Assembly (NCBI GenBank): GCA_023133595.1
Contig: JAGLWF010000003.1
Span: 44,369-108,368 of the forward strand
Origin: Nanobdellota archaeon
GTDB taxonomy: Archaea; Nanobdellota; Nanobdellia; Woesearchaeales; WJKV01
Direction of reading: 5' to 3'
DNA: 64,000 nucleotides
Shown: in pieces, positions 1,171-27,988 of the stretch
Layout: each line of letters starts with the position of its first letter
Position numbering within the stretch: position 1 is the stretch's first letter
Program-made: the position numbers and the translations under genes
The notes under the pieces: model-generated
Told to the model about the DNA's origin: nothing
Databases searched by the model: none
What the model saw: only the letters and a program-made list of their open reading frames with translations

Positions 1171-3180
1171 TCAGAGCTTTTGGATGAAACCATGTTTTGG
1201 CTCGAAAAGGTCGCCAGACCTTTTTAATCTCTCAATAGCTTCTTCAACTTCAGAAGCAGGTATCCCTTTTTCTCCTGCAATTTTAACAATATCATCAATA
1301 GGAATGGTTTTTCCGATCTTATTTTCTAATTCATTGATTATTTCTCTGACTCCGGCGATTTTTCCTCTCTGGCTTGCGCTAATTCCAGAGGTAATCCTGT
1401 CTATGTCAATCTTTCCTGTTTCTTTGTCAGTCGCAATCTCTGCAAGACAGAACTGAACCAAATCAATGGCTCTCTTTGCATCTTCCCTGTCAACTGTACT
1501 GGATAATCTTATACGAGCAGAAGCTTCTGCCATCCGGATGATACCTTCCAACTGCCGCGCTGAAATAGGGACAGACTTCATGCCCCCTTCTTCTGTGCCC
1601 GAACTTCGCATCTTGACATAATATTCCTGGATCTCTTCAATTGCTTTGTCAGTAAGTTTTGGTTGGCATGTTTGCTTTGCATAAGCAACATATTTTCTAA
1701 TTATCTCTGTTGAGATCGGGCTTTCATGCAGAGAAGAAGCATCTTGGTGCAGTTTAAGAATAAAATATGACATCTTTTTGTCTTTATCTTTATCAGGGAG
1801 ATCCTTTATCGGAAATATTAGATCGAACCTGTTGATCAAGGAAGCTGGCAGATTAATCTGCTCACTGATCGCGATATAGGGATCAAAACGCCCGAACTTA
1901 GGATTTGCAGCTGCAAGGACCGTTGTTTCACATCTTAATGTCGCTTGAATGTTTGCTTTGCTTATGCTGATCTGCTGCTGTTCAAGAGCTTCGTGCATTG
2001 CGTCACGATCCTCTTTATTCATCTTATCTAACTCGTCAATCATACAATATCCTTTATGTGCTAGAACCAGAGCACCACCTTCAAGAACCCAACCATTTGT
2101 AAACTCATCTCTCAAGACAGAAGCTGTAAGTCCTGCACCAGAAACACCTTTTCCACTCACAAATCGGGATTTAGGGGCTACAAAAGAGACCCTTTTAATT
2201 AATTGAGATTTTCCAGATCCAGGATCCCCAATCAATAAAATATGTGTATCTCCTCTTGTTATGACACCGTCAGGCCGTACTTTTCGAACTCCGCCGAACA
2301 TCTGCAGAACTAATGCAGCCTTAACTTTTTCATGACCATAGATAGAAGGCGCGATTGCCAGCTGGAGTTTTTCGTAGACATGAGGATCTAAAGCCAAATC
2401 TTTGATTGCTTTTAATTCTTCGTCTTCTATTGACAGCTCAAGAAAATCATCTTCCATTGGTTCGATCAAATTTCCAGAAAGAACCAATTCAAAACGTACA
2501 GATTGTGATCCGCTTTTCTGCATGATCGGAATCTCTTTGACAATACCAAAGACGCAAACGCGCGTTCCAGGATTTGTCCGTTTCTCTGTGAATGGGGAAG
2601 TCATATCATCTGTCAGATAAACATCGATACGCTTTGGCTGAGCACCACCGAGCGCTTCTGGGCTTTCCTCTAGTACGATTCTCTGCGCATCCATGAGATT
2701 TTTTTCTATTAGTTTGAACTTTCCTTTTCTTCCGCAGCCGCACTTGCTAGGCTGACGAAAGGAAAGATCATCCTGAATAATGTTGATGATGTTTCCGCAG
2801 CTTGGACATTCGAATTTTGCATTGACAACCTGCGGACGCACCCCTGATTTTATCTTAACAATGCCTACAACCTTGATAAATTTGCCAATATGCTCGCTCC
2901 TGATCTCCCCTATTGGAATTCCTGCACTCTCTGGCAAGCTGAAGAACCGTGATTTGATCTTCCTAGGAACATCAAACTTAGAAATGGCGAGTTCGCAGGC
3001 CTTGATAGTGTCTTCTGGCGTTGTGAGCAGGGTTTCTGCTAAGTCTACATTGAACTTAGATAGTTCAGAAAAATCAATTTTCAAGCTATTGTTCTTCGAT
3101 CGTGCGACTTCTAAAACTTCTGCTTTCAAGTTGCTGTCGATAAAACGATGGAACAATTCTATCTGTTCACTTACGTCCAT
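1171..3180 (-). CDS. mcm: Minichromosome maintenance (MCM) replicative helicase
   Basis: Walker A (LLIGDPGSGKSQL), Walker B (CMIDELDKM), N-terminal C4 zinc motif (CPSCGN...CGCG), arginine-finger region and C-terminal wH. 669 aa, no intein. Confidence 0.92.
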   Translation of the reverse strand: MDVSEQIELFHRFIDSNLKAEVLEVARSKNNSLKIDFSELSKFNVDLAETLLTTPEDTIKACELAISKFDVPRKIKSRFFSLPESAGIPIGEIRSEHIGKFIKVVGIVKIKSGVRPQVVNAKFECPSCGNIINIIQDDLSFRQPSKCGCGRKGKFKLIEKNLMDAQRIVLEESPEALGGAQPKRIDVYLTDDMTSPFTEKRTNPGTRVCVFGIVKEIPIMQKSGSQSVRFELVLSGNLIEPMEDDFLELSIEDEELKAIKDLALDPHVYEKLQLAIAPSIYGHEKVKAALVLQMFGGVRKVRPDGVITRGDTHILLIGDPGSGKSQLIKRVSFVAPKSRFVSGKGVSGAGLTASVLRDEFTNGWVLEGGALVLAHKGYCMIDELDKMNKEDRDAMHEALEQQQISISKANIQATLRCETTVLAAANPKFGRFDPYIAISEQINLPASLINRFDLIFPIKDLPDKDKDKKMSYFILKLHQDASSLHESPISTEIIRKYVAYAKQTCQPKLTDKAIEEIQEYYVKMRSSGTEEGGMKSVPISARQLEGIIRMAEASARIRLSSTVDREDAKRAIDLVQFCLAEIATDKETGKIDIDRITSGISASQRGKIAGVREIINELENKIGKTIPIDDIVKIAGEKGIPASEVEEAIERLKRSGDLFEPKHGFIQKL

Positions 3181-3181
3181 C

Positions 3182-3775
3182 TTACTTTATTTCTTTTAGT
3201 TTTTTCACTAGCTTTTTAACAGCTTCGTCAACAGCTTCTTTGCTTTTTGTACCAGTACATACGATCTGTCCGTTTGTGAACAGCAAGAATGTTGCTCTAG
3301 TTCCTTTTAGTTTGTAGACTAGACCTGGAAATTGTTCTGGTTCATACTCTGTATTCTCTAGCTTGACTGCTAAAGTGTTCAGGTTGATGTCCATTCCAAT
3401 GCTTCCAGAAGCAACTATATTCTGTACAGTATATTGTGGTTTTGACTTTACATTGACACCAATCTTTTTCAGAGCTTCTACTATTTTTACCATTGCCTGA
3501 TCCACTTTCTCTAGGTCTCGAGCACCAGTACAAACAATCTTTCCACTGTTAAAGATTAATGCTGAAGTTTTTGGTTCTCTAATTCTAAGAACTAAACCTG
3601 GAAACTGCTCAGGATTATACTCTGTATTAGGGAGGGTAGCTGCCATCTTTTCTAATGGTATCTTGTCTTGGTCGACCTGACCAGAAACAACTATGTTTAC
3701 TATTCTGATACTAACCTTTCCCTTCTCACCTTTTTTTGTTTTGGATTTTGTTTTTTTGGCTGCGATTTTTGCCAC
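3182..3775 (-). CDS. tbp: TATA-box-binding protein (TBP) with a lysine-rich N-terminal extension; GTG start
   Basis: Two tandem TBP repeats (NIVVSGQV...EQFPGLVLRIREPKTSALIFNSGKIVCTGA and NIVASGSI...EQFPGLVYKLKGTRATFLLFTNGQIVCTG). The stop lies 2 nt from the MCM start, implying an operon. Confidence 0.9.
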   Translation of the reverse strand: MAKIAAKKTKSKTKKGEKGKVSIRIVNIVVSGQVDQDKIPLEKMAATLPNTEYNPEQFPGLVLRIREPKTSALIFNSGKIVCTGARDLEKVDQAMVKIVEALKKIGVNVKSKPQYTVQNIVASGSIGMDINLNTLAVKLENTEYEPEQFPGLVYKLKGTRATFLLFTNGQIVCTGTKSKEAVDEAVKKLVKKLKEIK

Positions 3776-4076
3776 CTCCGGAATTATATTTTAAGATCAT
3801 ACCCCCTCTGTTTATAAAAGAATATCTTCTAATTTATAAAGGTTTTTATTTCCTGTAGTCTGGGGTATACAGGTTAGAGTGGTATAATGCCTTTGCTTCG
3901 CATGGAGCCGCTCTTTTATAGCACGTTTTATAGCTATATTTAAGCCCTACACAACGTTGCCACATCTTGTTTCCAAAGGAAATTAAGGGGTGCTTGAGAG
4001 GCGTGCGTGGGTATCATTGTCTATATAGCGAATTATTTTCAATATGGAAAAAATTAAAAGCCATAAGATTTATATA

Positions 4077-4103
4077 TAACTATTGTTAACTTAACTATTG
4101 TTA
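4077..4103 (+). promoter_or_regulatory. Tandem 12-bp direct repeat (TAACTATTGTTA x2, 15-bp register) just downstream of a TATA-like box (TTTATATATA, 4068-4077), ending on the ATG of the HTH gene; candidate operator
   Basis: Read directly: taactattgtta at 4077-4088 and 4092-4103. Confidence 0.35.
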
Positions 4104-4465
4104 TGGTTATGAAACTAACGTCTCAGGAAATCGAAGTATGGCATGTGTTGCCAGCTGTAAGGGCAGAGCTTGCCAAAGAGATGAAAGAGCTGGGCATGCT
4201 GCAGAAGGATATTGCCTCTGTGCTGGGCCTGACACAAGCTGCGATTTCACAATATTTCTCGAACAAGAGGGGATGTAGTATTACATTCAATGATTGTATA
4301 CAGAAGCAAATAAAGACTAGTGCTGGGAAGCTAAAGGACAATTCAGAGGTATTGTTCAAGGAATTGTATGATATATTGCAAATGGTACGTGATACAGGCC
4401 TATTATGTAAGATTCATCAAGAATTTACAGATATATCAAAGTGCGAATGCTGCAAAAAACACTGA
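4103..4465 (+). CDS. XRE-like HTH transcriptional regulator with a C-terminal Cys/His cluster; first gene of the isc / tRNA-thiolation operon
   Basis: HTH segment LQKDIASVLGLTQAAISQYFSNKRG; C-terminal CKIHQEF...CECCKKH could bind a metal. Confidence 0.5.
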   Translation: MVMKLTSQEIEVWHVLPAVRAELAKEMKELGMLQKDIASVLGLTQAAISQYFSNKRGCSITFNDCIQKQIKTSAGKLKDNSEVLFKELYDILQMVRDTGLLCKIHQEFTDISKCECCKKH

Positions 4466-4467
4466 AA

Positions 4468-5613
4468 ATGGCAAAAAAAGTATATTTGGATCATGGGGCG
4501 ACAACACCAGTAGATGCAGAAGTAGTTGAAGCTATGCAACCTTACTTTACAGAGAAGTTCGGCAATGCGTCTTCTATACATTGTTTTGGAAAAGTGGCCC
4601 GTGATGCTCTGGAAAAATCACGAGAAATTATTGCTTGGAAGATAAATGCTGAAAAAGATGAGATAATTTTTACTTCAGGCGGTTCAGAATCAAACAATCT
4701 TGCAATCAAGGGTGTTTTGTTCGCGAATAAAGAGAAGAATCATATTATCACTTCAAAAATCGAGCATCCTGCTGTTTTACAGACATGCCAGGCACTTGAG
4801 AATGGATTTTCTGTAACTTACTTGGATGTTGATGCAGGCGGCTTAGTTGATTTGAAAAAGTTGGAGGAAGCGATTACTGACAAAACAGCTTTGGTTTCTA
4901 TTATGCACGCAAATAATGAGATTGGAGTTATCCAGGATATCAGAACGATTGGCGAGATCTGCAAGAGACATAATGTTTTGTTCCATACTGATGCTGTGCA
5001 GAGTTTCACAAAAGTTCCGATTGATGTCAAAGATATTAATGTTGATCTGATTTCCTTATCTTCACATAAAATGCACGGACCAAAAGGAATAGGGGCTTTA
5101 TTTATCAAGAAAGGAACTGAATTACAGAAGCAAAACCAGGGCGGACATCAAGAGCTTGATCTCCGTGCAGGAACTGAGAACATTTCAGGAATTGTTGGTT
5201 TTGCAAAAGCAGTAGAATTAGCCAGTGATGATCATGTTGCGCAAATGCAGGAACTGCGAGATAAATTTATCGACAAGATATTGAAAGAAATATCAGATAC
5301 AACCCTTAATGGCGGTCGTGAGGAACGATTGTGCAATAATGTGAACATTACATTCAAATTTATCGAAGGAGAAGGCTTATTATTACATCTAGATGCGCAT
5401 GGCATTGCTGTCAGCACTGGAAGCGCCTGCACCTCACAATCGTTAGAACCTTCACATGTATTGCTTGCGATTGGATTAAAACATGAGGATGCGCACGGTG
5501 CTATCCGTTTTACACTTGGAAAAGAAAATACACAAGAAGAATTAGATTATACTTTTGAAAAATTAAAAGAGGCTGTGAAGAACTTAAGAAAAATAAGCCC
5601 ATTGGCAAAATAA
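4468..5613 (+). CDS. iscS: Cysteine desulfurase (IscS/NifS family, PLP-dependent)
   Basis: LDHGATTP N-terminus, PLP-lysine motif SSHKMHGPKG and active-site Cys region STGSACTS. Start chosen at MAKKVYLDH rather than the upstream GTG. Confidence 0.88.
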   Translation: MAKKVYLDHGATTPVDAEVVEAMQPYFTEKFGNASSIHCFGKVARDALEKSREIIAWKINAEKDEIIFTSGGSESNNLAIKGVLFANKEKNHIITSKIEHPAVLQTCQALENGFSVTYLDVDAGGLVDLKKLEEAITDKTALVSIMHANNEIGVIQDIRTIGEICKRHNVLFHTDAVQSFTKVPIDVKDINVDLISLSSHKMHGPKGIGALFIKKGTELQKQNQGGHQELDLRAGTENISGIVGFAKAVELASDDHVAQMQELRDKFIDKILKEISDTTLNGGREERLCNNVNITFKFIEGEGLLLHLDAHGIAVSTGSACTSQSLEPSHVLLAIGLKHEDAHGAIRFTLGKENTQEELDYTFEKLKEAVKNLRKISPLAK

Positions 5614-5614
5614 A

Positions 5615-6031
5615 ATGTCGTACGTAGACCAATACTCGGAAAAAGTAAAAGAACATTTCATGCATCCAAAGAATATGGGGCATATCAAGGAAGAAGATCT
5701 TCAGCCAGGAGAAGAACTGGCTCGTGGAGAAGTTGGGAATCCAGCATGCGGAGATTTGATGACTATATTTTTGAAGATCAAAGACAGAAAGATAATTGAT
5801 GCAAAGATCAAGACATTTGGCTGTGCAGCCGCAATAGCATGTTCTTCAATAACAACTGAGATGGTTGTTGGATTGACAATTGACAAAGCACGGAAATTGA
5901 CAAAGAATCAAGTCGCGGACGAGCTTGAAGGATTGCCCCCATTAAAACTGCATTGTTCAAATCTAGCTGTTGATGCTTTGAACAAAGCATTAGACAATTA
6001 TGAACAAGGCATTGGAGTAGTAAGAAAATGA
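5615..6031 (+). CDS. iscU: Fe-S cluster assembly scaffold IscU/NifU
   Basis: The three conserved cysteines sit in GNPACGD, FGCAAAIAC and LHCSNLA contexts. Confidence 0.88.
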   Translation: MSYVDQYSEKVKEHFMHPKNMGHIKEEDLQPGEELARGEVGNPACGDLMTIFLKIKDRKIIDAKIKTFGCAAAIACSSITTEMVVGLTIDKARKLTKNQVADELEGLPPLKLHCSNLAVDALNKALDNYEQGIGVVRK

Positions 6032-6906
6032 ATGTTTTTATTCTAAGATTCGGAGAGATTGCACTTAAAGGGGCAAATCGAAGTAGATTCGAGAAATCAT
6101 TAATCAGAAATATACAAAGAAGAGTTGAAGGCAGTGTTATCAAGCGAGTGCAGGGCAGATTTTATTTGTATAATGATAAGCTTGATGAGGACAGGATAAT
6201 TGTATTATTGCATAGTGTGTTTGGATTAGTATCTTTTTCTCCTGCAATTGAATGCGAACTTGATATCGAAAAGATAAAAGAAACCATACTTTCTGTGATT
6301 GAAAAAGAAAAAGCAAAGAGAAAGATTGAAACATTCAGGATCACAACAAACAGGATTGAAAAACATCTTCTTTCGTCCAATGAGATGAGCCGTGACATGG
6401 GCGCGTTTGTCATTGGAAAAACAGGATGGAAAGCAAAGATGAAAGGTATGGATCTGAATATTGGCATTGAGATTGCGAACAAAGCTTTCATTTATACTGA
6501 GAAGATAGGAAGCCTTGCTGGAATTCCAGTTGGTATTGAAGGAAATATCTTCTTACTGATGGATGATCCAGACGCCTTAGTCAGCGGGTTTATCATGATG
6601 AAACGCGGTTGCGACATATTTCCATTGATCTTTGATGAGAAAGATAGAGAGATGGCTGAAGGCGTTATTGAGAAGTTGCAGGTATTTTCGCCGGGCAAAC
6701 TATCTTTGCATGTATACAAACCAGAAGAGATCAAAGAAGTTGCTGAAAAATACAAGTTAAGAGCGATCGCTGTCTCAGATAAGGTTGATAAGATGAGACC
6801 TGATCTTGAAATCACAACACTACGACCGATAGTCGCGTTTCCAGACAAAACACTAAAATTTTATAGAGATAAGATAGAAAAAATTATCTTAGGCATTGAA
6901 AAATGA
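6028..6906 (+). CDS. ThiI-like protein: N-terminal ferredoxin-like plus THUMP domain, then a truncated PP-loop-like segment whose SGGxDS motif is degenerate
   Basis: N-terminus ILRFGEIALKGANRSRFE matches the ThiI start. VSGFIMMKRGCDIFPLIF aligns to ThiI ...SGGIDSPVAAYLMMKRGxEV..., but the PP-loop residues read DDPDAL. Overlaps iscU and the downstream carrier gene by 4 nt. Confidence 0.6.
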   Translation: MNVFILRFGEIALKGANRSRFEKSLIRNIQRRVEGSVIKRVQGRFYLYNDKLDEDRIIVLLHSVFGLVSFSPAIECELDIEKIKETILSVIEKEKAKRKIETFRITTNRIEKHLLSSNEMSRDMGAFVIGKTGWKAKMKGMDLNIGIEIANKAFIYTEKIGSLAGIPVGIEGNIFLLMDDPDALVSGFIMMKRGCDIFPLIFDEKDREMAEGVIEKLQVFSPGKLSLHVYKPEEIKEVAEKYKLRAIAVSDKVDKMRPDLEITTLRPIVAFPDKTLKFYRDKIEKIILGIEK

Positions 6907-7100
6907 AAATTATTATCAAAAAAGCAGGGAAAAAGGAGATTACAAAGAAATTTTCCGGAACCGGAAAAAAACTATTGGAAGAACTAAAGATAAATCCAGA
7001 AGAGGTATTGATTCTGAAGAATAACGAGCTGGTGGATGTCGATGCGCGTTTGACTGATAACGATAATATTGAGATCTTATCTGTTGTTTCAGGTGGATAA
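6903..7100 (+). CDS. Ubiquitin-like sulfur-carrier protein (ThiS/MoaD/TtuB family) with a C-terminal Gly-Gly
   Basis: 65 aa, ending ...SVVSGG-stop. Overlaps the start of the downstream TtuA gene by 1 nt. Confidence 0.55.
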   Translation: MKIIIKKAGKKEITKKFSGTGKKLLEELKINPEEVLILKNNELVDVDARLTDNDNIEILSVVSGG

Positions 7101-8005
7101 TGAAATGCAAAAAATGCAAACAAAAAGCTGTTGTCTCTGGTCTATGTAAAGATCATTTTGTGAAATCTTTTGAGAGAAGATTCTATGATTGCATTGCCAA
7201 ATACAAATTGATCAAGAAAAAAGATAAGATTCTTGTTGCAGCAAGCGGGGGAAAAGATTCCATTGTCCTTCTTTATCTGCTATCTAAAAAATATAAGGTC
7301 AAGGCTCTTGCAATTGATGAAGGAATTCACGGTTATCGAGAACAGACGTTGAAAGTTTTGAAAGAATTTTGTGAAAAGAATGAAATAGAACTAACAATAA
7401 AAACATTGAAAAAAGAGTTTGGATATTCACTTGACCAGATCATCAAGAAAACCAAACTGCGGGCGTGCACTGTCTGCGGAATATTACGAAGGTATCTGTT
7501 GAACAAAGACAGATCGTGCGACGTGATTGCAACAGGACATAATCTTGATGATGAGGCACAGTCAATCCTGATGAATGTTCTCAAGAACCAGATTGAATTA
7601 CTGGCAAGATTAGGGCCAAAGACAGGAGTGATCCCTAAAAAAATCGCAAAGAAACATTTCATACAAAGGATAAAGCCAATGTATTTCATTCCAGAACGAG
7701 AAATAATGGCGTATGCTGTGATAAAAAAGTTTGGAGTCTCTTTTACAGAATGTCCATATGCCTATGATTCATTTAGGAGCTCTGTACTGGAAGGATTAAA
7801 TTTGATTGAAAATAAAAATCCTGGAACAAAGATGAATATTGTCAAGAATTTCTTATCAGAACTGCCGAATCTTAAACAAAAATATAAGCAGGGCAGAGTT
7901 GGCCAATGTTCACGGTGCAGAGAACCTGCAAACAAGCAATTATGCAGTGCGTGCCAGATGGCTGATCGAATGAAGAAGTTATTGAAAGCTCGAAAACCTT
8001 TATAA
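7100..8005 (+). CDS. ttuA: TtuA/NcsA/TtcA-family tRNA 2-thiolation PP-loop ATPase with Zn/Fe-S cysteine clusters
   Basis: PP-loop VAASGGKDS, N-terminal CxxC...C, central CTVCG, HNLDDEAQS motif and C-terminal CSRCREPANKQLCSAC. Confidence 0.75.
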   Translation: MKCKKCKQKAVVSGLCKDHFVKSFERRFYDCIAKYKLIKKKDKILVAASGGKDSIVLLYLLSKKYKVKALAIDEGIHGYREQTLKVLKEFCEKNEIELTIKTLKKEFGYSLDQIIKKTKLRACTVCGILRRYLLNKDRSCDVIATGHNLDDEAQSILMNVLKNQIELLARLGPKTGVIPKKIAKKHFIQRIKPMYFIPEREIMAYAVIKKFGVSFTECPYAYDSFRSSVLEGLNLIENKNPGTKMNIVKNFLSELPNLKQKYKQGRVGQCSRCREPANKQLCSACQMADRMKKLLKARKPL

Positions 8006-8029
8006 AGCACGATACCCACGTATTCTTTT

Positions 8030-8650
8030 ATGATAGATATAGTATTTCCAGACAGCAACGAGAAAGAATTTGTTGGGATGGCAAAGAGATTAGGCTATTC
8101 TGGAATCTGTTTTGTCTATCATGAGAAAGATCGAAAAAATCTAGTGAAAGCAGAAGCTTTGAAAGAAACAGGTTTCAATATCTTTACTGGGCTTGTCTGC
8201 AAAAAATTGCCAAAAGCAAAAGCAGATATATATTTTGCTGAAAAGAACGATCGTTTCTTTTTGAAAGGAAAACATGATGTGATATTTGATATTGAAGGAC
8301 TGTATGATTTTATCCATCAAAGAGATTCTGGCCTAAATCACATATTGTGCAGGATGATGCACGAGAAAGAAGTTAGCTATGGCATCTCATTTTCTGCTAT
8401 ATTGAATTCAGAGAAACGATCTGTATTGCTTGGCCAGATAATGCAGAATGTAAGACTGTGCCAGAAGTATAAAACAAAGATAATTTTTGCATCTTTTGCA
8501 GAACATCCCTTTAAGATGCGATCTCCAAATGATCTGGAAGCTTTTGGCAGGATTCTAGGACTGCGCAATGCAAAAAAAGTACTGAATGCAGCGGCATCTG
8601 TAGTGAAGACTAAGCAAAGACAGATAGGCAAAGACATAGAGCGCATATAG
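8030..8650 (+). CDS. Possible RNase P protein subunit Rpp30 (Rnp3), TIM-barrel/PHP-like
   Basis: Weak match from memory to archaeal Rpp30: N-terminal MIDIVFPDS...MAKRLGYSGICF and C-terminal ...MRSPNDLEAFGRILGLRNAK. Unverified. Confidence 0.3.
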   Translation: MIDIVFPDSNEKEFVGMAKRLGYSGICFVYHEKDRKNLVKAEALKETGFNIFTGLVCKKLPKAKADIYFAEKNDRFFLKGKHDVIFDIEGLYDFIHQRDSGLNHILCRMMHEKEVSYGISFSAILNSEKRSVLLGQIMQNVRLCQKYKTKIIFASFAEHPFKMRSPNDLEAFGRILGLRNAKKVLNAAASVVKTKQRQIGKDIERI

Positions 8651-8699
8651 AATTTTCTAATAAAGTTTATATAGGTAATCTTATTTAAGAAGTCTGGAG

Positions 8700-11600
8700 A
8701 TGGTGGTAGGTTTGAATAAAGGGATTTATGCAAGAATTCTTCTTGTTTTATGCAGTTTACTAGTACTTTCTGTAGTTGCTTCTGCATTCGATTATATTGC
8801 GATTGATTATGCAGATCCGCGCCTGAATCTAACAAATCTATATTGGAAAGTAATGAGCCCTATAGATCAACCTACAGAAGGAGGGTATCTTTATAGCAAA
8901 AATGATGTGGGAGTAACGAGTAATATTGGTAAATTTCATATAAGAAAATCAGGAACATATAATGTCTGGACATATGTTGTGGCAGACGCATTAGGTCAGT
9001 GTAGAAGCGGAGGACATACCAGAAGAATAAACCTAAGGCAGACACATGCATTAAAACTTGACAGTCAGGTATGGGTCGATGTTGTGCCACAGACAGAGCC
9101 TTATAAATATACTCGGACGTGGGTAAAAGCTTATGATCAGGTACAGCTAAATGCAGGAGAACATACAATACAACTAAAAGATACAGGGGGTGCACAGGAT
9201 CCCTGCGGAGTTGCTTTGATTTATTCAACATACGCAATCACAATGGTGATTACTGATAATCTAGCGCAAACAGCGAGTGGGTTGAGTTATTATTATAATA
9301 AAACTTCTGACGTGATCAAAGGAAAATGCGACGCATTCTATTGGTGCGAAGATGACCAGACATGTTTTTTTGGAGGATATTTTCTGCCAGCACCGGGTGC
9401 GACAGGAATTGCAGCAACAAAGTTTTGTTGTGGAGATCAATCGAATGAAGTCTTTACTAAATTTACCACTGTTGGCCAAACATTCTACAGATGTCTTGTG
9501 AATGAACCAGATAGTGCGCAAAGTGTATGCGGAGCTGTGACTGGACAGTATGAATGGTGGAACCCAGACCAAAATATTGGAACATTAGATGATAATTGTT
9601 GCGGTGATGATGATTATGATAATGGTGCGATATCTAAAGAAAGCGCAGCAGGCGGTGTCTACTTGATGTGCGACCGTACAGATATTGGAACTCCTGTTGT
9701 AAGGCAGGCAACTAATGTTTATGCTGGAAGTGTCTATAAGATTGAACGACCATCTCAAAGAACCTATGACGTTCTTACAACAGCCACTGGAAAATTTATT
9801 CCATGTTCATATATAAAACATAGTGGAAATTATGCATTTTGGAATCCTGCAGGAACATTTGTAGATTACCAGAATCGTATTCGTGTCGGATCGAGTGAAT
9901 TCTTGTGCGATGTGAGGGGGGATCGAGGTTATTATAGAATATACGAATGTAGAAACGCAATGCCTTCAGGCGGAAGATATACTGCATTAACAGCTCAAGA
10001 AGAAAAGTCTAACGACGATAATCGTGGATTTGTGATGGGAAAGGCTATAGTGAATCCATTCCCAGAAGATTGGTCTGGGTTTAGCAGGCAGAGTGAGACT
10101 CCGTGCTCAGCAGATTTTTGTACCACTTTTGCAAACCCAATACAAGACGAATTATCAACAAATACATTCAAATTAGTGTCTTGGTATAATGGGGATTTCG
10201 CCTTTGATATTTATTTTGAGAATCCTGAAAAAGCAAAGGATCTTGACTTTTATCTTGCTGGACGAAACACTACAGGGGTTATGCCTTCAATTCGAGGCCA
10301 GTTATCGCAATATTTCACCAGTTCACGAAAAGAAGGAACCGGAAGATGGTATCATGTCATAATCCCTAAAGAAAGAGTTAATGTCGCGATACCGTCTGGT
10401 TTTGCTATTGGATTTGCTCTGATACCAAAAACAAACATTGGAAAGGTAAAATTGTCAAATCCTCATCTGAAATCGACCTACCCCCAAACGTTTTACTGCG
10501 GCGAGGATCTGGATTCTGGTACAGGAAAATGGATCACTGACCCAGATGATAATGGAAAAGCTTGTGACGCATTATTGACTGCTGACTGGACTGGAACGAG
10601 ATGTTGCGGCGATGACAGAACAACCGAGAATATCGCACGAGGGAATATGAAAGGAGAATTTTTCTTTGATACAGATGGAATGTGTTTCAATTCGTTGAAA
10701 GTTCCAGAGACTGGAACAGTCCAGCGCATCGCGGTTCCAGATGCGCAAGGCAATAAAAAGTTTAAGCTATTGGCAGATTCTGACACTGGAAAGATTTATT
10801 CGTGCGGTGCAGATGAAAGTGGTTTTGGATGGTTAACAGAAATCAGATCTACAGACGGAAGTAATCAAGATATGGTTGAAGAAGCGCAGACATGTGATGC
10901 ATTCGGCACAAGATCAAGAAGTTATTTCTGCAATGGAACCGAATGGGATGATGCGACATACACTATAACAGACCCGGACAATTTTCCAGGAACAATAAAG
11001 CCTTTGGATCGTACTGTCCAGTCAAAAGATCCAACAGGAACGAAATTGGGATGCTGCAGGCAGGACGAATGTTTTGATGGAACAACATGCGTTGATTCTG
11101 AACACGATGACCAGCCAGAAGAACCAGAAGGGGGTGGAACAATGTGCATGCGCGGTCACTGGATAAACGCCTCAATCATATATGACTGGCTGACTGACGA
11201 GTTCGGTTTTTGCGCAGAAAGCAGCGAATGCTTGTTAGATCCAGATGCAGATACATTGATCACATCAGATGAAACATTATCAATCTGTAAACCTTCTGGA
11301 TGGTATGCTGAATCGTCACAGATCGAAGGCCTGGGTAAAAGTCTAGGGTATAACGAAGATAAGATTAATGCGATATATTGTGATGATGGAAAATGGATGT
11401 CGAGGACAAAGTTTATAGCACAGAAAATGTTAGCGATTCCAAGCACAGAGGACTATACTTTAGTTTGCGGATTTCCATCTGAAGTTCTTGTTGATGAAGG
11501 TTTAGGATTCAGGGGGTATAGTCCAATTGCAAGTTCTGCAATGAGATTCACAAACGAATTTGACGAGGATGTCTTTAATCATCTCTGTATCTTGCAGTAT

Positions 11601-12284
11601 AGAGGAAAGTTAATTCTGGGTGCGAGCTTTAACAAATTTGGAGATGATATCGAGATTCCAATTGAAAACCAGATCTCAATTGAAAAAGCATTATATGAAG
11701 CATTTGATATAAAATATATTGACTTTTCTGTATGCGGAGGAAGTTCAGACAGGTTTGATTTCAAAGCGTGCATAATTCAGTCAGATTCAGCGACAAATGC
11801 AAGATTTTACTGGAATGATATGACGCAAACTTTTATCTATACTCCGAATGGAGGAGATGTCTTGTCAACTGGTTTTATCTCCAGTTTGTATAATCTGTTC
11901 ATCACACCGATTCTGAACTTGTTGGATGTTGTGAAACAAAATATTTTCGAGGTCGCGCCAACTCCACTGCAGGACACAACCTTATTTTCTCGTCTCTATG
12001 TAAGAAAACTTGGCAACCGAAGAATCTTTAGTATTATTGAACCAAAGAAAGGAACAGGATCAACAATCTATGATTATATGACAGCAAGATATGAGAATTT
12101 TCCAGAAGATATCTGTGCATCTGTGGATATCTATGATATTGAACGGGCGCAGCAAGCAATAATGTGCAATAAAAATGGAACAGTACAGACAGTGTTTGCA
12201 GTTGTAGGTTCTAATAATCCTGTCGCATTGCTGGCCCCGCGCGATTTTGTTCAATCAATAACCCAACAAAGAAGAATATCATAA
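8700..12284 (+). CDS. Large (1194 aa) cysteine-rich secreted/surface protein; N-terminal hydrophobic signal (NKG-IYARILLVLCSLLVLSVVASA); recurring CCGDD/CCGDQ motifs
   Basis: One long uninterrupted ORF. Signal/TM at the N-terminus. CCGDDDYDNG, RCCGDDRTTEN, FCCGDQSNE and GCCRQDECFDG modules recur. No recognisable catalytic motif. Confidence 0.6.
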   Translation: MVVGLNKGIYARILLVLCSLLVLSVVASAFDYIAIDYADPRLNLTNLYWKVMSPIDQPTEGGYLYSKNDVGVTSNIGKFHIRKSGTYNVWTYVVADALGQCRSGGHTRRINLRQTHALKLDSQVWVDVVPQTEPYKYTRTWVKAYDQVQLNAGEHTIQLKDTGGAQDPCGVALIYSTYAITMVITDNLAQTASGLSYYYNKTSDVIKGKCDAFYWCEDDQTCFFGGYFLPAPGATGIAATKFCCGDQSNEVFTKFTTVGQTFYRCLVNEPDSAQSVCGAVTGQYEWWNPDQNIGTLDDNCCGDDDYDNGAISKESAAGGVYLMCDRTDIGTPVVRQATNVYAGSVYKIERPSQRTYDVLTTATGKFIPCSYIKHSGNYAFWNPAGTFVDYQNRIRVGSSEFLCDVRGDRGYYRIYECRNAMPSGGRYTALTAQEEKSNDDNRGFVMGKAIVNPFPEDWSGFSRQSETPCSADFCTTFANPIQDELSTNTFKLVSWYNGDFAFDIYFENPEKAKDLDFYLAGRNTTGVMPSIRGQLSQYFTSSRKEGTGRWYHVIIPKERVNVAIPSGFAIGFALIPKTNIGKVKLSNPHLKSTYPQTFYCGEDLDSGTGKWITDPDDNGKACDALLTADWTGTRCCGDDRTTENIARGNMKGEFFFDTDGMCFNSLKVPETGTVQRIAVPDAQGNKKFKLLADSDTGKIYSCGADESGFGWLTEIRSTDGSNQDMVEEAQTCDAFGTRSRSYFCNGTEWDDATYTITDPDNFPGTIKPLDRTVQSKDPTGTKLGCCRQDECFDGTTCVDSEHDDQPEEPEGGGTMCMRGHWINASIIYDWLTDEFGFCAESSECLLDPDADTLITSDETLSICKPSGWYAESSQIEGLGKSLGYNEDKINAIYCDDGKWMSRTKFIAQKMLAIPSTEDYTLVCGFPSEVLVDEGLGFRGYSPIASSAMRFTNEFDEDVFNHLCILQYRGKLILGASFNKFGDDIEIPIENQISIEKALYEAFDIKYIDFSVCGGSSDRFDFKACIIQSDSATNARFYWNDMTQTFIYTPNGGDVLSTGFISSLYNLFITPILNLLDVVKQNIFEVAPTPLQDTTLFSRLYVRKLGNRRIFSIIEPKKGTGSTIYDYMTARYENFPEDICASVDIYDIERAQQAIMCNKNGTVQTVFAVVGSNNPVALLAPRDFVQSITQQRRIS

Positions 12285-13651
12285 TGAAAAGAGGTCAAGT
12301 TACATTATTCATAGTACTAGGAATTATTATTCTTCTAGTTTTCTTGTTTGCATTCTACCTTGTTGCTAACCTTTCTGGAGAGCCACTGGAAGCACAAAAA
12401 CTCGTGGTTGCAAAAAGCAAGCTGCAGTCAGAATCTTTGCGTTACTATGTTGAGTCATGTGTAAAAAAAGCTGCAAACGACGGTTTGATGCTGATATCTA
12501 ACCAAGGAGGATTTATTTTTAATGGACAACCAGGAAGCAGTATTTCATGCACAGAAACATCGTGCACACCTGGCGGGATGATAACAATTGAAGGATGGAA
12601 AACACCGTACCTGATAACCCCGAATCCTGTCTTGGTTCCGCAAGCATATCCGTATCTAAAATTTCCGTGTGCTGCCAACATGAGCTGGCCATACTGTCGA
12701 TATAATTATGATCCAAATATAACAATCTCGCCATTTATTGCTGTTTCCAGTTTACCTTATCTTTACAAATTTGAAGGTGAGGATAGCATACAAGAACAGT
12801 TAGAGAAATATATTGAATATAAAACAAATGAATGCATTGATTTTGGTGGGGTCACAAATATCACCGGCATCCCTTATCTGATCCAATCTGAAATGCCGAC
12901 TGCAAACTTAACTATTACTGCATATGATCTTCGCGCGACACTAAAACTTCCATTGAAAATATCAGGGGAAGGTTCGTATCCAGTAATAGAAGTGCAGGAG
13001 TATGAAGTAATCCTTCCTGTACGTTACGGTCATTTTTATTCTTTTGTCAGGGATATTGTCAACAAGGAAAGCGCAGATCCGGGTTTTGATATTAATGATT
13101 ATGATACTCTTGGCACGTATTGGCCAGGGTTTTTTGTTCATGTCCAGCCGGATAAAAACTCAGGAGGAGGAGATGATCTAGTAATTATTCGCGACGATCA
13201 ATCGTTTATAGGTCAGAAGATGTTAGAGTTTAGATTTATTCGCGCAAACCTGCCACCAGTATTGAATTATACGCGCGGCTCAGGTTATTCTAACTCTTCT
13301 GATTTTATTATTTACATAGTTGGTGAAGCGCAAAGACTTGATGTCGTGCCGTTTGCAGTGGATCCAAACGAAGATGTTCTGCAGTATTCCTATGCACAGT
13401 GGGGACAGCAGTTTTTTGAGAAATATATCGGGCCAGGACAGAGCCAAGCTCTGCCGATCCAGGGTCACGAAAAGTGGATGAAGCCAGGCTATGATCCTAT
13501 TTCTGGTGCTGCGTATGTTATTGTGAATAAAACCCGCGATCTTGGAAAACATAAATTTTCCATCAAAGCAGAAGATCCAACTTTCATGTACGATCTGCAG
13601 ACAGCAAATATTTCTGTCTGGGATGCTGCAATGTTTACTGGGAGTCCATGA
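12284..13651 (+). CDS. 455-aa protein with a class III (type IV prepilin-like) signal peptide and a large extracellular domain
   Basis: N-terminus MKRGQVTLFIVLGIIILLVFLFAFYLV fits the [KR]G-cleavage plus hydrophobic-stretch pattern. Overlaps the stop of the upstream gene (ATGA). Confidence 0.5.
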   Translation: MKRGQVTLFIVLGIIILLVFLFAFYLVANLSGEPLEAQKLVVAKSKLQSESLRYYVESCVKKAANDGLMLISNQGGFIFNGQPGSSISCTETSCTPGGMITIEGWKTPYLITPNPVLVPQAYPYLKFPCAANMSWPYCRYNYDPNITISPFIAVSSLPYLYKFEGEDSIQEQLEKYIEYKTNECIDFGGVTNITGIPYLIQSEMPTANLTITAYDLRATLKLPLKISGEGSYPVIEVQEYEVILPVRYGHFYSFVRDIVNKESADPGFDINDYDTLGTYWPGFFVHVQPDKNSGGGDDLVIIRDDQSFIGQKMLEFRFIRANLPPVLNYTRGSGYSNSSDFIIYIVGEAQRLDVVPFAVDPNEDVLQYSYAQWGQQFFEKYIGPGQSQALPIQGHEKWMKPGYDPISGAAYVIVNKTRDLGKHKFSIKAEDPTFMYDLQTANISVWDAAMFTGSP

Positions 13652-13731
13652 GTTATTCATAAAATACCCAAACATTTATAAATGGAAAAGCGATAGATAT
13701 TATCACACGGGATTGAAAGAGAGGTTGGTGG

Positions 13732-16700
13732 ATGAAATACAAAATAGTCCTATTATTAATTCTGATTTTAGCTATTTTTACCTGTCTATCCTCTTATGTT
13801 TATGCTTCGTGCTGTGTGAATGAACAAACTTCGTTCACAAGCGTTGTTAATGACATTACGTGTATTGACAATCTTCCATTGTCCGCATGTCCAGTAGGAT
13901 ACAATGCAACTGTTGCTTCTTGCAGTGCTGTCCCGCAGTGTGGATGTTGCGTCTGTACACCAGCTTCTGGAGGAAAACAAGTCTTTGCTTCTGGTGATAT
14001 GCGTGTCTCGAACAATTTCTGTACTGCATTTTGCAGCCAGGCAACAGGAGATCCAACGCATCAATTGATTCCTGGGCTTACAGCTGCACAGTGTAGCGGA
14101 CAAATCGCTGCGCAGACAGTATCTGGCCGTGTAACAGACCAGTCTGGAAATCCGATTGTCGGAGCGACTGTGACTGCGCCTTCTGGCTCTTCTGTGACAG
14201 ATAATGGGGGTTTCTATACTATCGGAGTGATTGCTCCTGTCACAACATTAAACATATCAAAATCAGGTATTTCAACATCAATCCAAGTGGATACCCGTAT
14301 CAGAACAACTGGTTGGAATGTAAGCCTTACCCTGGCTGCGCGCGTCGCAGACCTATACGGTAAGGTTACTCCAATCATCAACAATGTTCCGAGCACAACA
14401 CCGATACCAAACACAAGGATCAAGATCACAGATGGTGTGAACACGTTCAATACAATGACAGATGCTGTCGGCGAGTATCGTTTCATTGGGATTCCACTCG
14501 CCACATATCAATTGACAGCGAACAAATGCGCATACTTCAAAAAACAAGAATCTGTTACAGTATCAGCACCTACAACAGCACACAACATCCTTCTTCAGCC
14601 AGCGCCTAAAGAAATAATCTCTGGGACAGTGCGTGATACGCAGAACCGGATGATAGAAGATGTTGATTTCATTGTGTCTCCACCAGCAGGAGTTGTTACA
14701 AAAAGCGATGCAAACGGAAGGTTCCTGATAACAGATATTGATTCCAATTGTCAATATTCGATAAAAGCAACAAAGACGCCGCAGTACAGTGAACAGAGCA
14801 AAGTAGTAAATATTTATGCAGATGATTTTGTTACAACAAATCCTCTGAATTTTGTCCTTGCACCAGGCCCGGCATTCAATTTCTGTGCTGATATTGGCGA
14901 CTGTCGTGGAGAGGATATGAGACTGGGCAGTGCAGATGATTGCGGTTGCCCTGCAAATAAGATCTGCAATGCATTGACTGGAGAATGCGATGCGCGACCG
15001 ATAGTAGATTGCTGCGATTTCACGTTCCAGTGCCAGCCGCAGGCAGCAAAGCTTGCACCAACACCGCAGTGCGCTGGGAAAACAACGTGCGCAAACACGT
15101 GCGCAGAAATAATAGATTGCCCAGTAGATGAAAAATTGAGCAATGCAAATGTTGACGGTGTGTGCGAGTGTAGCGGCCAGTTGGTTTCTGTAACTCCAAG
15201 CATTGCAGAATTGTATAATATCCCGTTAGCAAGCGGAAAATATTGCTGCCCGTATTCATCAACACCAATAACAAACATGACATGCCAGGCGCAGAGCAAG
15301 GCAATAGTATTCGGCACAATTGTCAGCAAAATTACGCAATTGCCAATAGATGCCGCGATTCATGTTGACGGATCTCTAATTCCAATAGGATATAGCGACG
15401 CTGAGACTGGAGAATATGAAATTTATCTAACCCCGAATACTGCGCACACAATACAGTTCAGGAGAGAACCATTATATCTGCCAGTGATACGGAGTGTGCA
15501 GGCATTCAACTTGAAGAAAGGAGTGCGTTACAGGTTGGATGCAGAATTGCGCACAACCGAGATATTGTGCAATTATCCAACAAATCCACCTGTTCCAGAG
15601 TTTGCAGCTGAACATGTAAAATGCAAACCAGAAGCGAAATTAGTATGGGACAAAGATTACTGCCGGAATGATATTGGCGTGCAATCTTTTGCAATAGCAA
15701 ATGTCAATGACGATAAAATTTACCTTGTTGATAAGGATCAAGACGAATTTATCATTAAAGATTTAGAATGGGGAGAGACTTATGATTTCACAATACAGGC
15801 TGTATACGCTGACAGCAATCGACCGAGAGCAAGTGATCCAGTGACAATATCATTCTCAGCAGGAGATGCAGATTGTGCAGGCCAGTGTGATGATAAAGAA
15901 TTCTGCCTGTCAAACACCCAGAGAAGAATATGCGATAATAAGAATAAATTATCTTCTGCAGTTTCACCAGGATCTTTTGCTGATTGCGCTGAACATAAAA
16001 CAGCTGAAGGTACTGAAGCTGACTGGTTCTGTGCTGGACCGAACCAGCAAGGAAAAACCGTTTGTTTGATGGAGAATCAGTGCGGTTATGACTTGTCATC
16101 ACCAGTTCCCTTCTTAGGATTATTGTTCAATGATTTGAAATGTTCCAGAAATCTGAACACTGGAAAGATGAACAATGGATGTTATCTTGACAGAAGCACA
16201 ACCACTGTAGATTTTTGTTATTCCTGCCCAAAACCAGACAGTGAAGATTTTAACTGTTACACCTATGATTCCAAGTATGCGTGCGAGAATAACAGATGTA
16301 ATCTTCCAGGGGATTGCAGGTGGGTTCCAACAAGTTATTTTAATCTTGGAGAGGGCATATGTTATGATTATAATATGATTTCTGATACAAAATATGATCA
16401 GATAGAAGCTGGAAAAGAGATTGGGAGCGAATGCAGTGAGTGCAGCAAGCAAGGGGATCTCTTTGGCAATATTGATTGCGAGCAAGATGCCTGCAGTAAA
16501 TTAGGCTTGTGTTATTCTTCTGACGAACAGGGAACTTCTTGTTTTGAATGTAGTGAACAGACAGCATGTTCAGATTTCAAGACACGGGAGAGTTGCATCT
16601 CTGCTACAGGAGAAGATCGCAGATTCAATCTATTCTCTTCACCGTCAGCTCCAGAGAGTGCGCAGTACAGTGATGATGCGTGCGGATTAGGAGTCTGTGC

Positions 16701-24445: not shown

Positions 24446-24937
24446 ATGAAAAGAGGTCAAGTAGAAGCTAGAGTTGTTATTTATTTACTGGCAGTGTTTA
24501 TTGCGGCTTTGATATTATCTTATGGTTATTTGGCGATAAAAGGATTGATCTCGACACAGGAAGATATTCTGCTTGTCACATTCAAGGAAGATATAAAGAA
24601 TAAAGTGGATGAGAAAAGTTATGAGTTCAGGTCAGTTGAAAAATTATCATTTTCTCTTCCTACAACTTACGATGAGATCTGTTTTGGAGATCTTCGTAAT
24701 ATTGGTGCAGCATTGAATGCAATACCCGCTGGAAAAGTTTTGATCTCAGACAGTATTCGCGATGGGGTGAACCGCAATTTTTTCATTCTCCAGCGCGGAA
24801 AGCTCAAAGACGCGTTTTATATCGGAAAAATTGTTGTTGATGATAATTTTCAATGCTTGGAAGTTGCAAATGGAATGTTAAACTTAGAATTTAGGGCGCT
24901 AGGAAAATCTGGGGTCAAGATCTCTGAATGGACATAA
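24446..24937 (+). CDS. Class III signal peptide (pilin-like) protein, 163 aa
   Basis: MKRGQVEARVVIYLLAVFIAALILSYGYLAI; starts 2 nt after the giant gene's stop. Confidence 0.5.
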   Translation: MKRGQVEARVVIYLLAVFIAALILSYGYLAIKGLISTQEDILLVTFKEDIKNKVDEKSYEFRSVEKLSFSLPTTYDEICFGDLRNIGAALNAIPAGKVLISDSIRDGVNRNFFILQRGKLKDAFYIGKIVVDDNFQCLEVANGMLNLEFRALGKSGVKISEWT

Positions 24938-24938
24938 A

Positions 24939-25973
24939 ATGAAGAATCAAAAAGCAGCAATCGAATTACAGATCAATTGGATATTCGTAATGATCATAGG
25001 AGGGATAATCTTATTTTTCTTTATCGGAGTCGTTGCAAAACAAAGAGGGGTCTCTGAACAAAGGCTTGTGAATGAACTGATCCGAGATATTGATCAATAT
25101 ATCAGCGGTGCGAGTGTTGCGCCGCGCGGTGCTGCTAGCCTGCCAGTACCTGGATATGATATTCAATTTACTTGTGATCATCTGCAGATCAAGAACCAGC
25201 GTTCCCTGCTGGAAAGCCGGGTGGTGTTTGCTCCGGATTATGTTGACAAAGAGGATCGACAGTTGATAGTCTGGGCCCTGCCGTGGGAAATCCCCTACGA
25301 TGTGACCAACTTTCTTTATGCGACAGGTCCAGGCGTACGTTATGTTTTTGTCTATGAAGACGATAAATATGATGATTTTTACTATAATTTTGTGACAGAC
25401 AAGATCAATAAGATAAAGGTCCCTATCAAAGATGCTGGTAGAGTCCTGGATTTTGTGGATGAAGGGAGTTATAGGACCCGGATCGTGATGCTCGGCCAGA
25501 TGGAGCCAGTGCAAGTACCAGCATTTGCAAAGAATAAAGATACTTCTTTTGTATGGATCCCTTTTTTTGATCCACGAGAAAAATTGCCGGCTGGCGAAGT
25601 ATATTTTTTACAGTATAATCCTACAACTGAAGAATTCGAACCAGCAGAATCTAAATTTGTTGGAGTTCCATCTGTGATTGGTGCGGTCTTCAGCAGTTCT
25701 TTAGAAAATTATAATTGCGCAATGGCAAAAGCGTTCAAAAACCTTCACACTGTGAATACAGTATTTGCTAAAAAAGTGGAATTGCTAGGCGCGTCACAGG
25801 TTTGTCCGGCTTTCTATGGAGAGTATGACCGGAATCTCTTGGCAGAGATCTCAGCATATACTGAATACCCCGGGAACTGGCAATTAGATCTTGAAGATTT
25901 GTTGTCAAAAGTTGCTTCCCTCAGACAAAGAAATTTTTTGATTGAGTCACAATCATGTCCATTGATATACTAA
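24939..25973 (+). CDS. Class III signal peptide (pilin-like) protein, 344 aa
   Basis: MKNQKAAIELQINWIFVMIIGGIILFFFIGVV; coupled to its neighbours (2-nt gaps). Confidence 0.5.
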   Translation: MKNQKAAIELQINWIFVMIIGGIILFFFIGVVAKQRGVSEQRLVNELIRDIDQYISGASVAPRGAASLPVPGYDIQFTCDHLQIKNQRSLLESRVVFAPDYVDKEDRQLIVWALPWEIPYDVTNFLYATGPGVRYVFVYEDDKYDDFYYNFVTDKINKIKVPIKDAGRVLDFVDEGSYRTRIVMLGQMEPVQVPAFAKNKDTSFVWIPFFDPREKLPAGEVYFLQYNPTTEEFEPAESKFVGVPSVIGAVFSSSLENYNCAMAKAFKNLHTVNTVFAKKVELLGASQVCPAFYGEYDRNLLAEISAYTEYPGNWQLDLEDLLSKVASLRQRNFLIESQSCPLIY

Positions 25974-25974
25974 A

Positions 25975-26478: not shown

Positions 26479-26479
26479 G

Positions 26480-27986: not shown

Positions 27987-27988
27987 AA

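Follow-up and report, generated by a model that had tools for sequence, protein, structure and literature searches.

The DNA considered here is a stretch of 64,000 nucleotides (called the window below, at its full length; GC content ~38%) from a Nanobdellota archaeon of the Woesearchaeales, contig JAGLWF010000003.1. Its subjects are an operon at 4103-8005 and a gene 51 kb away, which resemble between them the two parts of ThiI (archaeal TtuI), the enzyme that makes 4-thiouridine at tRNA position 8 (s4U8). Six open reading frames (ORFs) lie on the + strand in the same orientation, overlapping or nearly abutting, and encode in order a helix-turn-helix (HTH) regulator, the cysteine desulfurase IscS, the iron-sulfur (Fe-S) scaffold IscU, a ThiI-like protein (ORF4), a small carrier ending in GG, and a TtuA/NcsA-type tRNA thiolase (Table 1). 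The HTH/IscS junction depends upon the IscS start, which is probably 4447 or 4468: a start at 4441 or 4447 puts IscS in overlap with the HTH gene, whereas one at 4468 separates the two by 2 nt. The later junctions are a 1-nt gap (IscS/IscU), 4-nt overlaps (IscU/ThiI-like and ThiI-like/ThiS) and a 1-nt overlap (ThiS/TtuA). An earlier note on this DNA, made from the letters alone, had named these six genes and described their operon-like packing; the family assignments were upheld by profile and structure matches, and the packing by the junctions. The RNase P p30 gene that follows TtuA is possibly co-transcribed, and genes for TBP and MCM, which mark the host as an archaeon, lie upstream in divergent orientation. 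The host belongs to the DPANN archaea, and the operon at 4103-8005, which is genuine and conserved in that group, serves to supply Fe-S clusters and to thiolate tRNA.

Table 1. Features of the operon and of the distant ThiI and E1 regions in the window, with loci of other genomes referred to in the text.
Feature	Position	Strand	Match or note
Candidate promoter/operator	4069-4103	+	TATA-like TTTATATATAA and direct repeat AACTATTGTTA, by sequence inspection
HTH_3 regulator, 120 aa	4103-4465	+	Pfam HTH_3 8.8e-06
NifS/IscS-type cysteine desulfurase	4441-5613	+	Aminotran_5 2e-88; TIGR03402
IscU/NifU-N Fe-S scaffold, 138 aa	5615-6031	+	PF01592 9.6e-42
ORF4, PH1313-like ThiI paralogue, 292 aa	6028-6906	+	NFLD, THUMP and shortened dead PPase-like domain
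ThiS/TtuB/SAMP2-like ubiquitin-fold sulfur carrier, 65 aa	6903-7100	+	PF02597; C-terminal GG (VVSGG)
TtuA/NcsA-type [4Fe-4S] tRNA 2-thiouridine synthetase, 301 aa (U54 or U34)	7100-8005	+	PP-loop protein
RNase P protein subunit p30/Rpp30	8030-8650	+	PF01876 1e-15; 24 nt after TtuA gene
Stand-alone ThiI/TtuI PP-loop pyrophosphatase domain, 200 aa	58589-59191	-	PF02568 3e-53
ThiF/MoeB-type E1 relic, 61 codons (ETC...CPAC)	59843-60025	-	PF00899 positions 172-238 of 238, 32.6 bits
Thermococcus ThiI with stand-alone domain (other genomes)	L176 4001-6340; L177 4001-5761; L030; L034		
Sua5/YrdC-linked ThiI-like genes (other genomes)	L081 6730-7302 / 8001-8921; L083 7448-7999 / 8001-8873		

Two complementary halves of ThiI

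ORF4 has the N-terminal architecture of ThiI (ThiI_fer PF22025, 2e-17; THUMP PF02926, 6e-10), followed by a truncated C-terminal domain, so that the protein is 292 aa long vs ~385 for canonical ThiI. Its match to the ThiI profile PF02568 was sub-threshold (18.7 bits); that to TIGR00342 (127.5 bits) fell under the 264.5 cutoff and covered profile positions 2-221 of 373 only. The earlier note had proposed that the PP-loop was lost and the ATPase domain truncated, and alignment to ThiI bore this out: MDDPDAL of ORF4 lies exactly opposite LSGGIDS of the T. maritima and B. anthracis enzymes, and no S.G.DS motif was found elsewhere in the ORF4 sequence. Profile-profile comparison (hhalign, 97.2%) showed the C-terminal domain to be a true homologue of the ThiI pyrophosphatase (PPase) domain, but of that domain nothing beyond the MMKRG strand and the LRPL..DK..I element is left. 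Missing are the PP-loop, the insert that bears CxxC, the ATP/dimer-interface loop (TGENxGQVASQT) and the whole C-terminal part with the catalytic Cys.

The crystal structure of a PH1313-type "ThiI-like" protein dates from 2005. This protein, PH1313 of P. horikoshii (PDB 1vbk), is the best solved relative of ORF4 (3e-32, 28% identical), and 1vbk was also the best Foldseek match of the predicted ORF4 model (pLDDT 95.1; TM 0.86/0.82), followed by ThiI structures; similarity to TtuA was far weaker (TM ~0.28). Both proteins consist of NFLD, THUMP and a shortened PPase-like domain (307 aa in PH1313 vs 292 aa), and in both the PP-loop is replaced, by HDELSA in PH1313 and by DDPDAL in ORF4. ORF4 belongs to the PH1313-like family; the earlier note was right that the THUMP protein lacks a PP-loop, but it had missed that a large family with a solved structure stands behind it. 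Crystallized as a dimer, PH1313 has never had its activity confirmed, according to a 2023 review (PMC9957541).

Among 120 homologues of ORF4, every form of 370-410 aa carried SGG[IF]DS and every form of 250-320 aa was without SGGxDS; three or more sequence subtypes could be told apart among the short forms. The columns that never vary in the short family are E10, K14, R44, F103, S117 and G125, with R7 and R109 nearly invariant. In T. maritima ThiI (TmThiI) the RNA is contacted by the NFLD loop Arg10-Lys19, by Arg46, by the strand Thr102-Lys109 and by the helix Val118-Asn132 (PMC4041423), and through the ORF4 alignment the invariant columns map onto these acceptor-stem and 3'-CCA contact elements. 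ORF4 is 67% identical to its orthologue in the closest relative, L171, with nonsynonymous and synonymous divergences of pN 0.217 and pS 0.707 (pN/pS ~0.3, with synonymous sites saturated); it is 100% identical to a protein of the "Nanoarchaeota archaeon" metagenome-assembled genome (MAG) GCA_030630885.1, and genes of this type are intact across many divergent DPANN lineages, down to ~30% identity. Because the invariant columns lie on RNA-contact elements and the gene is under purifying selection, ORF4 is by all signs of its conservation a pseudo-enzyme that binds RNA and is kept by selection, and its gene is not in decay. The sole conserved Cys of the short family is C195 within MMKRGC (at least 90% conserved). 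Canonical archaeal ThiI has the same Cys, while in Bacillota ThiI the position is taken by Val, so we regard C195 as an inherited structural feature; the idea that it forms a new active site was rejected on the same ground.

The gene at the far side of the window encodes what ORF4 has lost. Its product covers PF02568 positions 5-196 of 197 and scores 180.8 bits against this ThiI profile vs 35.5 bits against QueC. It matches 2c5s residues 190-390 (4.5e-33) and residues 176-380 of T. maritima ThiI (4kr6/4kr7), to which ORF4 aligns over residues 5-221, and it begins at the PPase domain boundary, its residue 2 being opposite Tm residue 176. The PP-loop (LSGGHDS), a CIYC pair, the loop of the ATP/dimer interface and SSCCDFVPKHP opposite the catalytic-Cys loop are present; no RNA-binding domain (NFLD, THUMP) was found in the protein. 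Its cysteines C76, C79 and C159 make up the CXXC+C motif, by which the TtuI enzymes of M. maripaludis and P. furiosus bind a [4Fe-4S] cluster that they cannot do without (PMC9825150). The best 120 homologues are all of 177-251 aa and largely from DPANN, and in them the PP-loop, C76, C79 and C159 are kept at 95-98% (C76/C79 95%, C159 98%). Several such proteins (P0121, P0125, P0134, P0177, P0199, P0235) are labelled "7-cyano-7-deazaguanine synthase" (QueC) by their sources. Neither ORF4 nor this protein is a complete ThiI, since each misses the elements of the other; as far as their sequences can be read, the two halves are exactly complementary in domains and motifs.

Gene neighbourhoods of the two halves

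A locus search with a 10-sequence alignment of short forms returned 80 genome loci, 44 of which carry the short PP-loop-less form, mostly from genomes labelled Woesearchaeota or Nanoarchaeota. A block recurs in the short-form loci: MCM, TBP, (HTH, IscS, IscU), ThiI-like, TtuA and p30. IscS lies within 3 kb in 11/44 and IscU within 500 nt in 11/44; TtuA is within 100 nt of the ThiI-like gene in 13 and within 6 kb in 20; and p30 is found downstream within 8 kb in 20. The closest relative, L171, has the same order, IscS-IscU-ThiI-like-ThiS-TtuA-p30. The adjacency of ThiI-like gene and TtuA is thus one piece of a longer conserved gene order, which takes in MCM, TBP and RNase P p30 and which the earlier note had missed, and part of the linkage is possibly inherited and not functional; because the block keeps functionally unrelated genes, adjacency alone cannot establish physical partnership. 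Canonical ThiI genes with a PP-loop often follow IscS in Bacillota, and TtuA was near none of them among the loci fetched. No locus whose record title names a DPANN lineage held a full-length ThiI with a PP-loop. Loci titled "uncultured Methanosarcinales archaeon" (L004, L012, L014, L016-L018, L020 and others) have the DPANN-type MCM-TBP-ThiI-like-TtuA-p30 synteny and low GC, and their taxonomic labels look wrong.

The window and KY335 each have both halves in one genome or contig, the contigs that carry P0004 and P0164 are equal in length, and a few loci bring the halves closer. In L092 the catalytic gene is followed, with a 4-nt overlap, by a gene for a 293-aa PP-loop-less THUMP protein, in an unrelated context with cysteinyl-tRNA synthetase (CysRS) and UbiA. 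L018 and L039 have one cluster in which the catalytic gene and an HTH-IscS-IscU-ThiI-like operon diverge, and in L088 the catalytic gene diverges from IscS-IscU. For P0040, the database protein most closely related to the THUMP protein of L092, no catalytic gene was found nearby, nor in the 750-bp uncalled gap upstream, and no THUMP gene was found within 10 kb of the P0164 locus.

The Pyrococcus PH1313 gene, unlike ORF4, does not adjoin a carrier gene, IscSU or TtuA: at the loci of its Pyrococcus orthologues a span of 6 kb held neither of the latter two, nor a stand-alone domain. PH1313 is 62-69% identical, over the query region, to Thermococcus ThiI forms of 372-384 aa. Most of these orthologues keep the PP-loop and CxxC; the third cluster Cys is absent in 80/80 parsed sequences, its site reading PEDE[IV]PFIPKHP, and several of the proteins at these loci end in a C-terminal Cys. 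Since the Thermococcus orthologues of PH1313 are still full length, the short forms of DPANN and those of Pyrococcus may be products of separate degeneration. At four Thermococcales loci (T. barophilus, T. siculi and two MAGs) a stand-alone CXXC+C domain of 196-198 aa follows the THUMP-bearing ThiI on the same strand. Taken together these cases resemble successive stages of one process, with catalysis being lost from the paralogue that bears THUMP whenever a competent stand-alone domain is present.

In higher-GC archaea an E1 gene followed by a stand-alone ThiI domain of 221-231 aa forms a recurrent operon (L107 6980-8657, L121, L119, L115 and about 12 other metagenomic loci), with no THUMP gene within 8 kb and, in L107, exosome Rrp4 near.

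A possible split 4-thiouridine synthetase and competing readings

The earlier note suggested that the THUMP protein may be a tRNA-binding or persulfide-relay adaptor instead of an adenylating enzyme. Its non-catalytic nature was borne out, and tRNA binding without adenylation agrees with the match between invariant columns and RNA-contact positions; persulfide relay found no support, C195 being present in canonical ThiI also, and the stand-alone catalytic half had been overlooked. Because the window encodes this complementary domain, a split enzyme is a better reading than an orphan adaptor. We propose that ORF4 and the stand-alone protein may form a heterodimeric, trans-acting s4U8 synthetase, a proposal whose chances we judge to be evenly balanced. 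What was observed is the domain make-up, the motifs that were lost or kept, how the families are distributed, gene order and purifying selection; from these we infer the dimer, the U8 target and the sulfur route. ORF4 would be the tRNA-presenting subunit, its NFLD-THUMP region recognizing the acceptor stem and 3'-CCA of the tRNA, and its dead PPase-like domain would dock onto the stand-alone domain after the manner of the ThiI homodimer, so that the heterodimer would recreate one composite active site of the ThiI dimer. The stand-alone partner would adenylate U8 and then thiolate it with its [4Fe-4S] cluster. IscS and IscU would build or supply clusters and sulfur for both TtuA and the stand-alone TtuI domain, and this proposed shared supply would account for the place of the THUMP subunit in the operon.

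Known enzymes offer precedents for this arrangement. Catalysis by TmThiI occurs in trans, its dimer interface is formed mainly by the PPase domains, and its THUMP ruler measures from 3'-CCA to U8 (PMC4041423); the TmThiI homodimer, however, has two active sites, a single catalytic Cys and no cluster motif, whereas the proposed archaeal heterodimer would have one active site. Archaeal TtuI (MMP1354, PF1288) shares the PP-loop and CXXC+C with the stand-alone protein and NFLD-THUMP with ORF4, but these are single-chain homodimers; in the window the functions are shared out between two proteins whose genes are 51 kb apart, and one of the proteins has a dead catalytic copy. Pairs of active and inactive paralogues are known in tRNA modification (Ctu1/Ctu2, Trm61/Trm6, ADAT2/ADAT3). 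They follow the same logic, a homodimeric ancestor giving rise to catalytic and tRNA-binding paralogues; none involves ThiI, and unlike them the catalytic partner in the window has also lost its own RNA-binding domains, a full division of labour. A description of split ThiI/TtuI was not found in the searchable literature. If the proposal is true, a two-subunit s4U8 synthetase would explain the PH1313-like and the stand-alone ThiI-domain families at once and would give a function to the PH1313-like family, whose structure is solved and whose activity is unconfirmed. ThiI would become one more tRNA-modifying enzyme in which a homodimer gave way to a heterodimer of a catalytic and a non-catalytic subunit, and nature would have supplied a clean case on which to test the trans mechanism deduced from the Thermotoga structure. 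Annotation would have to be corrected for a large part of archaeal diversity, since thousands of DPANN stand-alone ThiI PP-loop proteins are labelled QueC or thiamine-biosynthesis ThiI, and Fe-S supply and tRNA thiolation would appear, in these tiny genomes, as organized under one putative metal-sensing regulator.

Several observations weigh against this reading. The halves are far apart in most DPANN genomes, as in the window; the catalytic gene is within 8 kb in only 2/44 short-form loci, and no partner half was found within 10 kb of the L172 or L173 locus, while the ThiI-like gene is far more often beside TtuA, within 100 nt of it in 13/44. Stand-alone ThiI domains also lie beside E1 genes with no THUMP gene nearby and, in Thermococcus, next to ThiI genes that seem complete; a dead THUMP partner is therefore not a necessity for them. 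An active TtuI of its own, PF1288 (PMC9825150), is present in P. furiosus, and PH1313-type proteins are thus not the only route to s4U8 in Pyrococcus.

The first of these points leads to the main rival, that ORF4 is a THUMP tRNA-binding accessory of the adjacent TtuA and holds the acceptor arm during thiolation of U54 or U34; we regard it as unlikely, although it stands ahead of the other alternatives. Such a pair would resemble eukaryotic Ctu2/Ncs2, an inactive PP-loop paralogue, with Ctu1/Ncs6. It is favoured by the frequency with which the two genes are adjacent or overlapping, by there being only the 65-aa carrier between them in the window and in L171, and by the lack of TtuA near any PP-loop-bearing ThiI locus. 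A THUMP enzyme acting on the T-loop also exists, namely Pus10, which is named as a THUMP protein in PMC4041423. The adjacency, however, may be the inherited order already noted for the block with MCM, TBP and p30; the two genes are convergent in L001, TtuA is on the other strand and 1-4 kb off in L019, L059, L070 and L071, and neither the other short subfamilies nor Pyrococcus PH1313 are near TtuA. Moreover, this TtuA has every feature of the self-sufficient homodimeric enzymes, and the dead domain of ORF4 is homologous to the PPase domain of ThiI and far less like TtuA. ORF4-type proteins might instead be modular adaptors presenting tRNA to several partners that lack an RNA domain, or tRNA chaperones through successive steps, and here the differing neighbours of the short subfamilies, all of them enzymes that activate nucleotides, are suggestive: TtuA for the Woesearchaeota type, the stand-alone ThiI domain in L092, and Sua5/YrdC in L081 and L083, where short forms of the "FSG-DYEKS" type and of the Aenigmarchaeota type are beside genes of 180-190 aa with a Sua5/YrdC domain and not beside TtuA. 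We think this improbable, for the Sua5/YrdC linkage occurs in only two lineages (no Sua5/YrdC was found at the 80 genome loci or in the window), Sua5/YrdC is not known to act directly on tRNA in the pathway to N6-threonylcarbamoyladenosine (t6A), and several partners are less parsimonious than a single homologous one. A bolder form of the same idea, which we hold to be doubtful to a like degree, would make PH1313-like THUMP pseudo-enzymes detachable tRNA-presenters for the stand-alone ThiI domain, TtuA and Sua5/YrdC, one acceptor-stem reader thereby serving several modifications; as a corollary, thiolases that have outlived the loss of E1 would take their sulfur from clusters built by IscS/IscU, and the GG carrier would have another role.

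The two remaining alternatives deny ORF4 a part in presenting tRNA for thiolation. It could be a persulfide relay or sulfur carrier from IscS to the thiolases by way of its conserved Cys, as the conservation of C195 and the position of the gene after IscS-IscU would allow; we consider this very improbable, given that the MMKRGC Cys is shared with canonical archaeal ThiI, that ORF4 has neither a rhodanese domain nor a second conserved Cys, and that its strongest conservation is on the RNA-binding surface. Or it could be a non-essential leftover of a full-length ThiI, either without a role or binding RNA outside thiolation, and indeed all catalytic motifs are lost and ORF4 evolves faster than its neighbours (67% identity to L171 vs 85% for TtuA). 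The chances of this are slim: the reading frame is intact across divergent DPANN lineages to ~30% identity, RNA-contact residues are invariant, pN/pS is ~0.3 with saturated synonymous sites, and the fold is confidently predicted.

Neighbouring genes and other features of the window

The GG carrier exceeded the PF02597 cutoff (37.5 bits vs 22.5). In five other genomes (L019, L059, L070, L071, L171) a carrier adjoins TtuA and the LSV[VI]SGG end is kept; it is 74% identical to that of L171 (pN 0.148, pS 0.822), indicating purifying selection. The possibility raised in the earlier note that the GG-terminal ORF is an artefact is thereby answered. The TtuA-type protein matched PH0300 TtuA (3vrh/5mko) at 8e-55 and M. 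maripaludis NcsA (6scy) at 3e-43; aligned with PH0300, it keeps the PP-loop as SGGKDS, the Cys positions of CxxC and ECPYA, and both zinc-finger Cys pairs. Scores with the NCBIfam models for TtuA (NF049949, 206 bits vs 450 cutoff) and NcsA (NF047749, 184 bits vs 500 cutoff) were lower than required. As in TtuA-TtuB-TtuC of Thermus thermophilus, P. horikoshii TtuA (5gha, 5mkp) and NcsA/SAMP2/UbaA, the carrier gene is directly 5' of the TtuA-family gene, whose product likewise has a PP-loop, two zinc fingers and three cysteines for the cluster; the window differs from these systems in that the E1 is only a 61-codon relic and that the genes are joined to IscS-IscU and a regulator. Linkage of ThiS to a PP-loop ATPase in archaea was already described by Makarova and Koonin in 2010 (PMC2948915).

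No intact E1 (ThiF/MoeB/TtuC/UbaA) was found within the window, in agreement with the earlier note, which had nevertheless missed the ThiF-type relic. All that is left in this relic is the final third of the adenylation domain. It matches DPANN E1s over their residues 175-235 (best matches 9e-15 by phmmer, 1e-12 by tblastn) and lies between genes for a thymidylate synthase (60100-60750) and a GT2 glycosyltransferase (59188-59838), just upstream of the stand-alone catalytic ThiI gene; gene callers annotate a 50-aa ORF there. A tblastn search of the window gave no further E1 pieces. An intact E1 is directly 3' of TtuA in L019, L037, L059, L070 and L071, and operons of the order ThiS-TtuA-E1 occur in close relatives. 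From the relic, from these relatives, and from the many metagenomic loci with an E1 immediately 5' of a stand-alone ThiI domain, it follows that the source genome lost at least one E1 copy. DPANN E1s (L019 11139-12101, L059, L071, L091 6517-7581) have an extra C-terminal domain of ~85 aa and end in ...Y.K[WY]VG-x; that of L091 ends in GG, the extra domain being reminiscent of a fused ubiquitin-like or TBP-like domain.

The IscS product scored 543.1 bits with TIGR03402 (NifS; cutoff 530.75) and under the cutoffs of the IscS-specific models, and its translation has the SSHK motif of the pyridoxal-phosphate lysine and the STGSACTS Cys loop. IscU has the ligand motifs CGD, GC and HCS (three Cys ligands); its NCBIfam equivalogs were below cutoff (162.9 vs 187.9), so membership is at the domain level only. 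It is 80% identical to the L171 orthologue (pN 0.121, pS 0.698).

By inspection of the sequence, a putative TATA-like element, TTTATATATAA, lies at 4069-4079, ~25 nt 5' of the HTH start codon, and between this box and the start codon is an 11-nt direct repeat, AACTATTGTTA, with copies at 4078-4088 and 4093-4103, which could be a candidate operator for the HTH_3 regulator. Near the C-terminus, members of the regulator's family share a motif of three Cys and one His, LC.[IVY]H ... C..C, and homologues upstream of IscS-IscU in L002, L005, L012, L014, L018, L039 and L091 keep the Cys/His pattern; from this motif the protein may be a candidate IscR-like sensor of Fe-S clusters or metal. An Rfam scan of 3000-9000, including the 327-bp upstream region, gave no matches, nor did a tRNA scan of the whole window.

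Elsewhere in the window, 8700-24444 (+) encodes very large Cys-rich proteins (1194, 455 and 3570 aa), probably of the surface, which are followed by about 17 consecutive same-strand ORFs without a Pfam hit on record (24446-33911, +); the first part of the 8700-33911 region is conserved in L171. A second sulfur-related cluster at 46732-50521 (-) places a PAPS-reductase-family PP-loop protein (258 aa) beside two sulfatase-family genes. A free-standing LAGLIDADG homing-endonuclease-like gene (327 aa; 56412-57395, -) is found between HAD hydrolases and an RNase H-fold gene.

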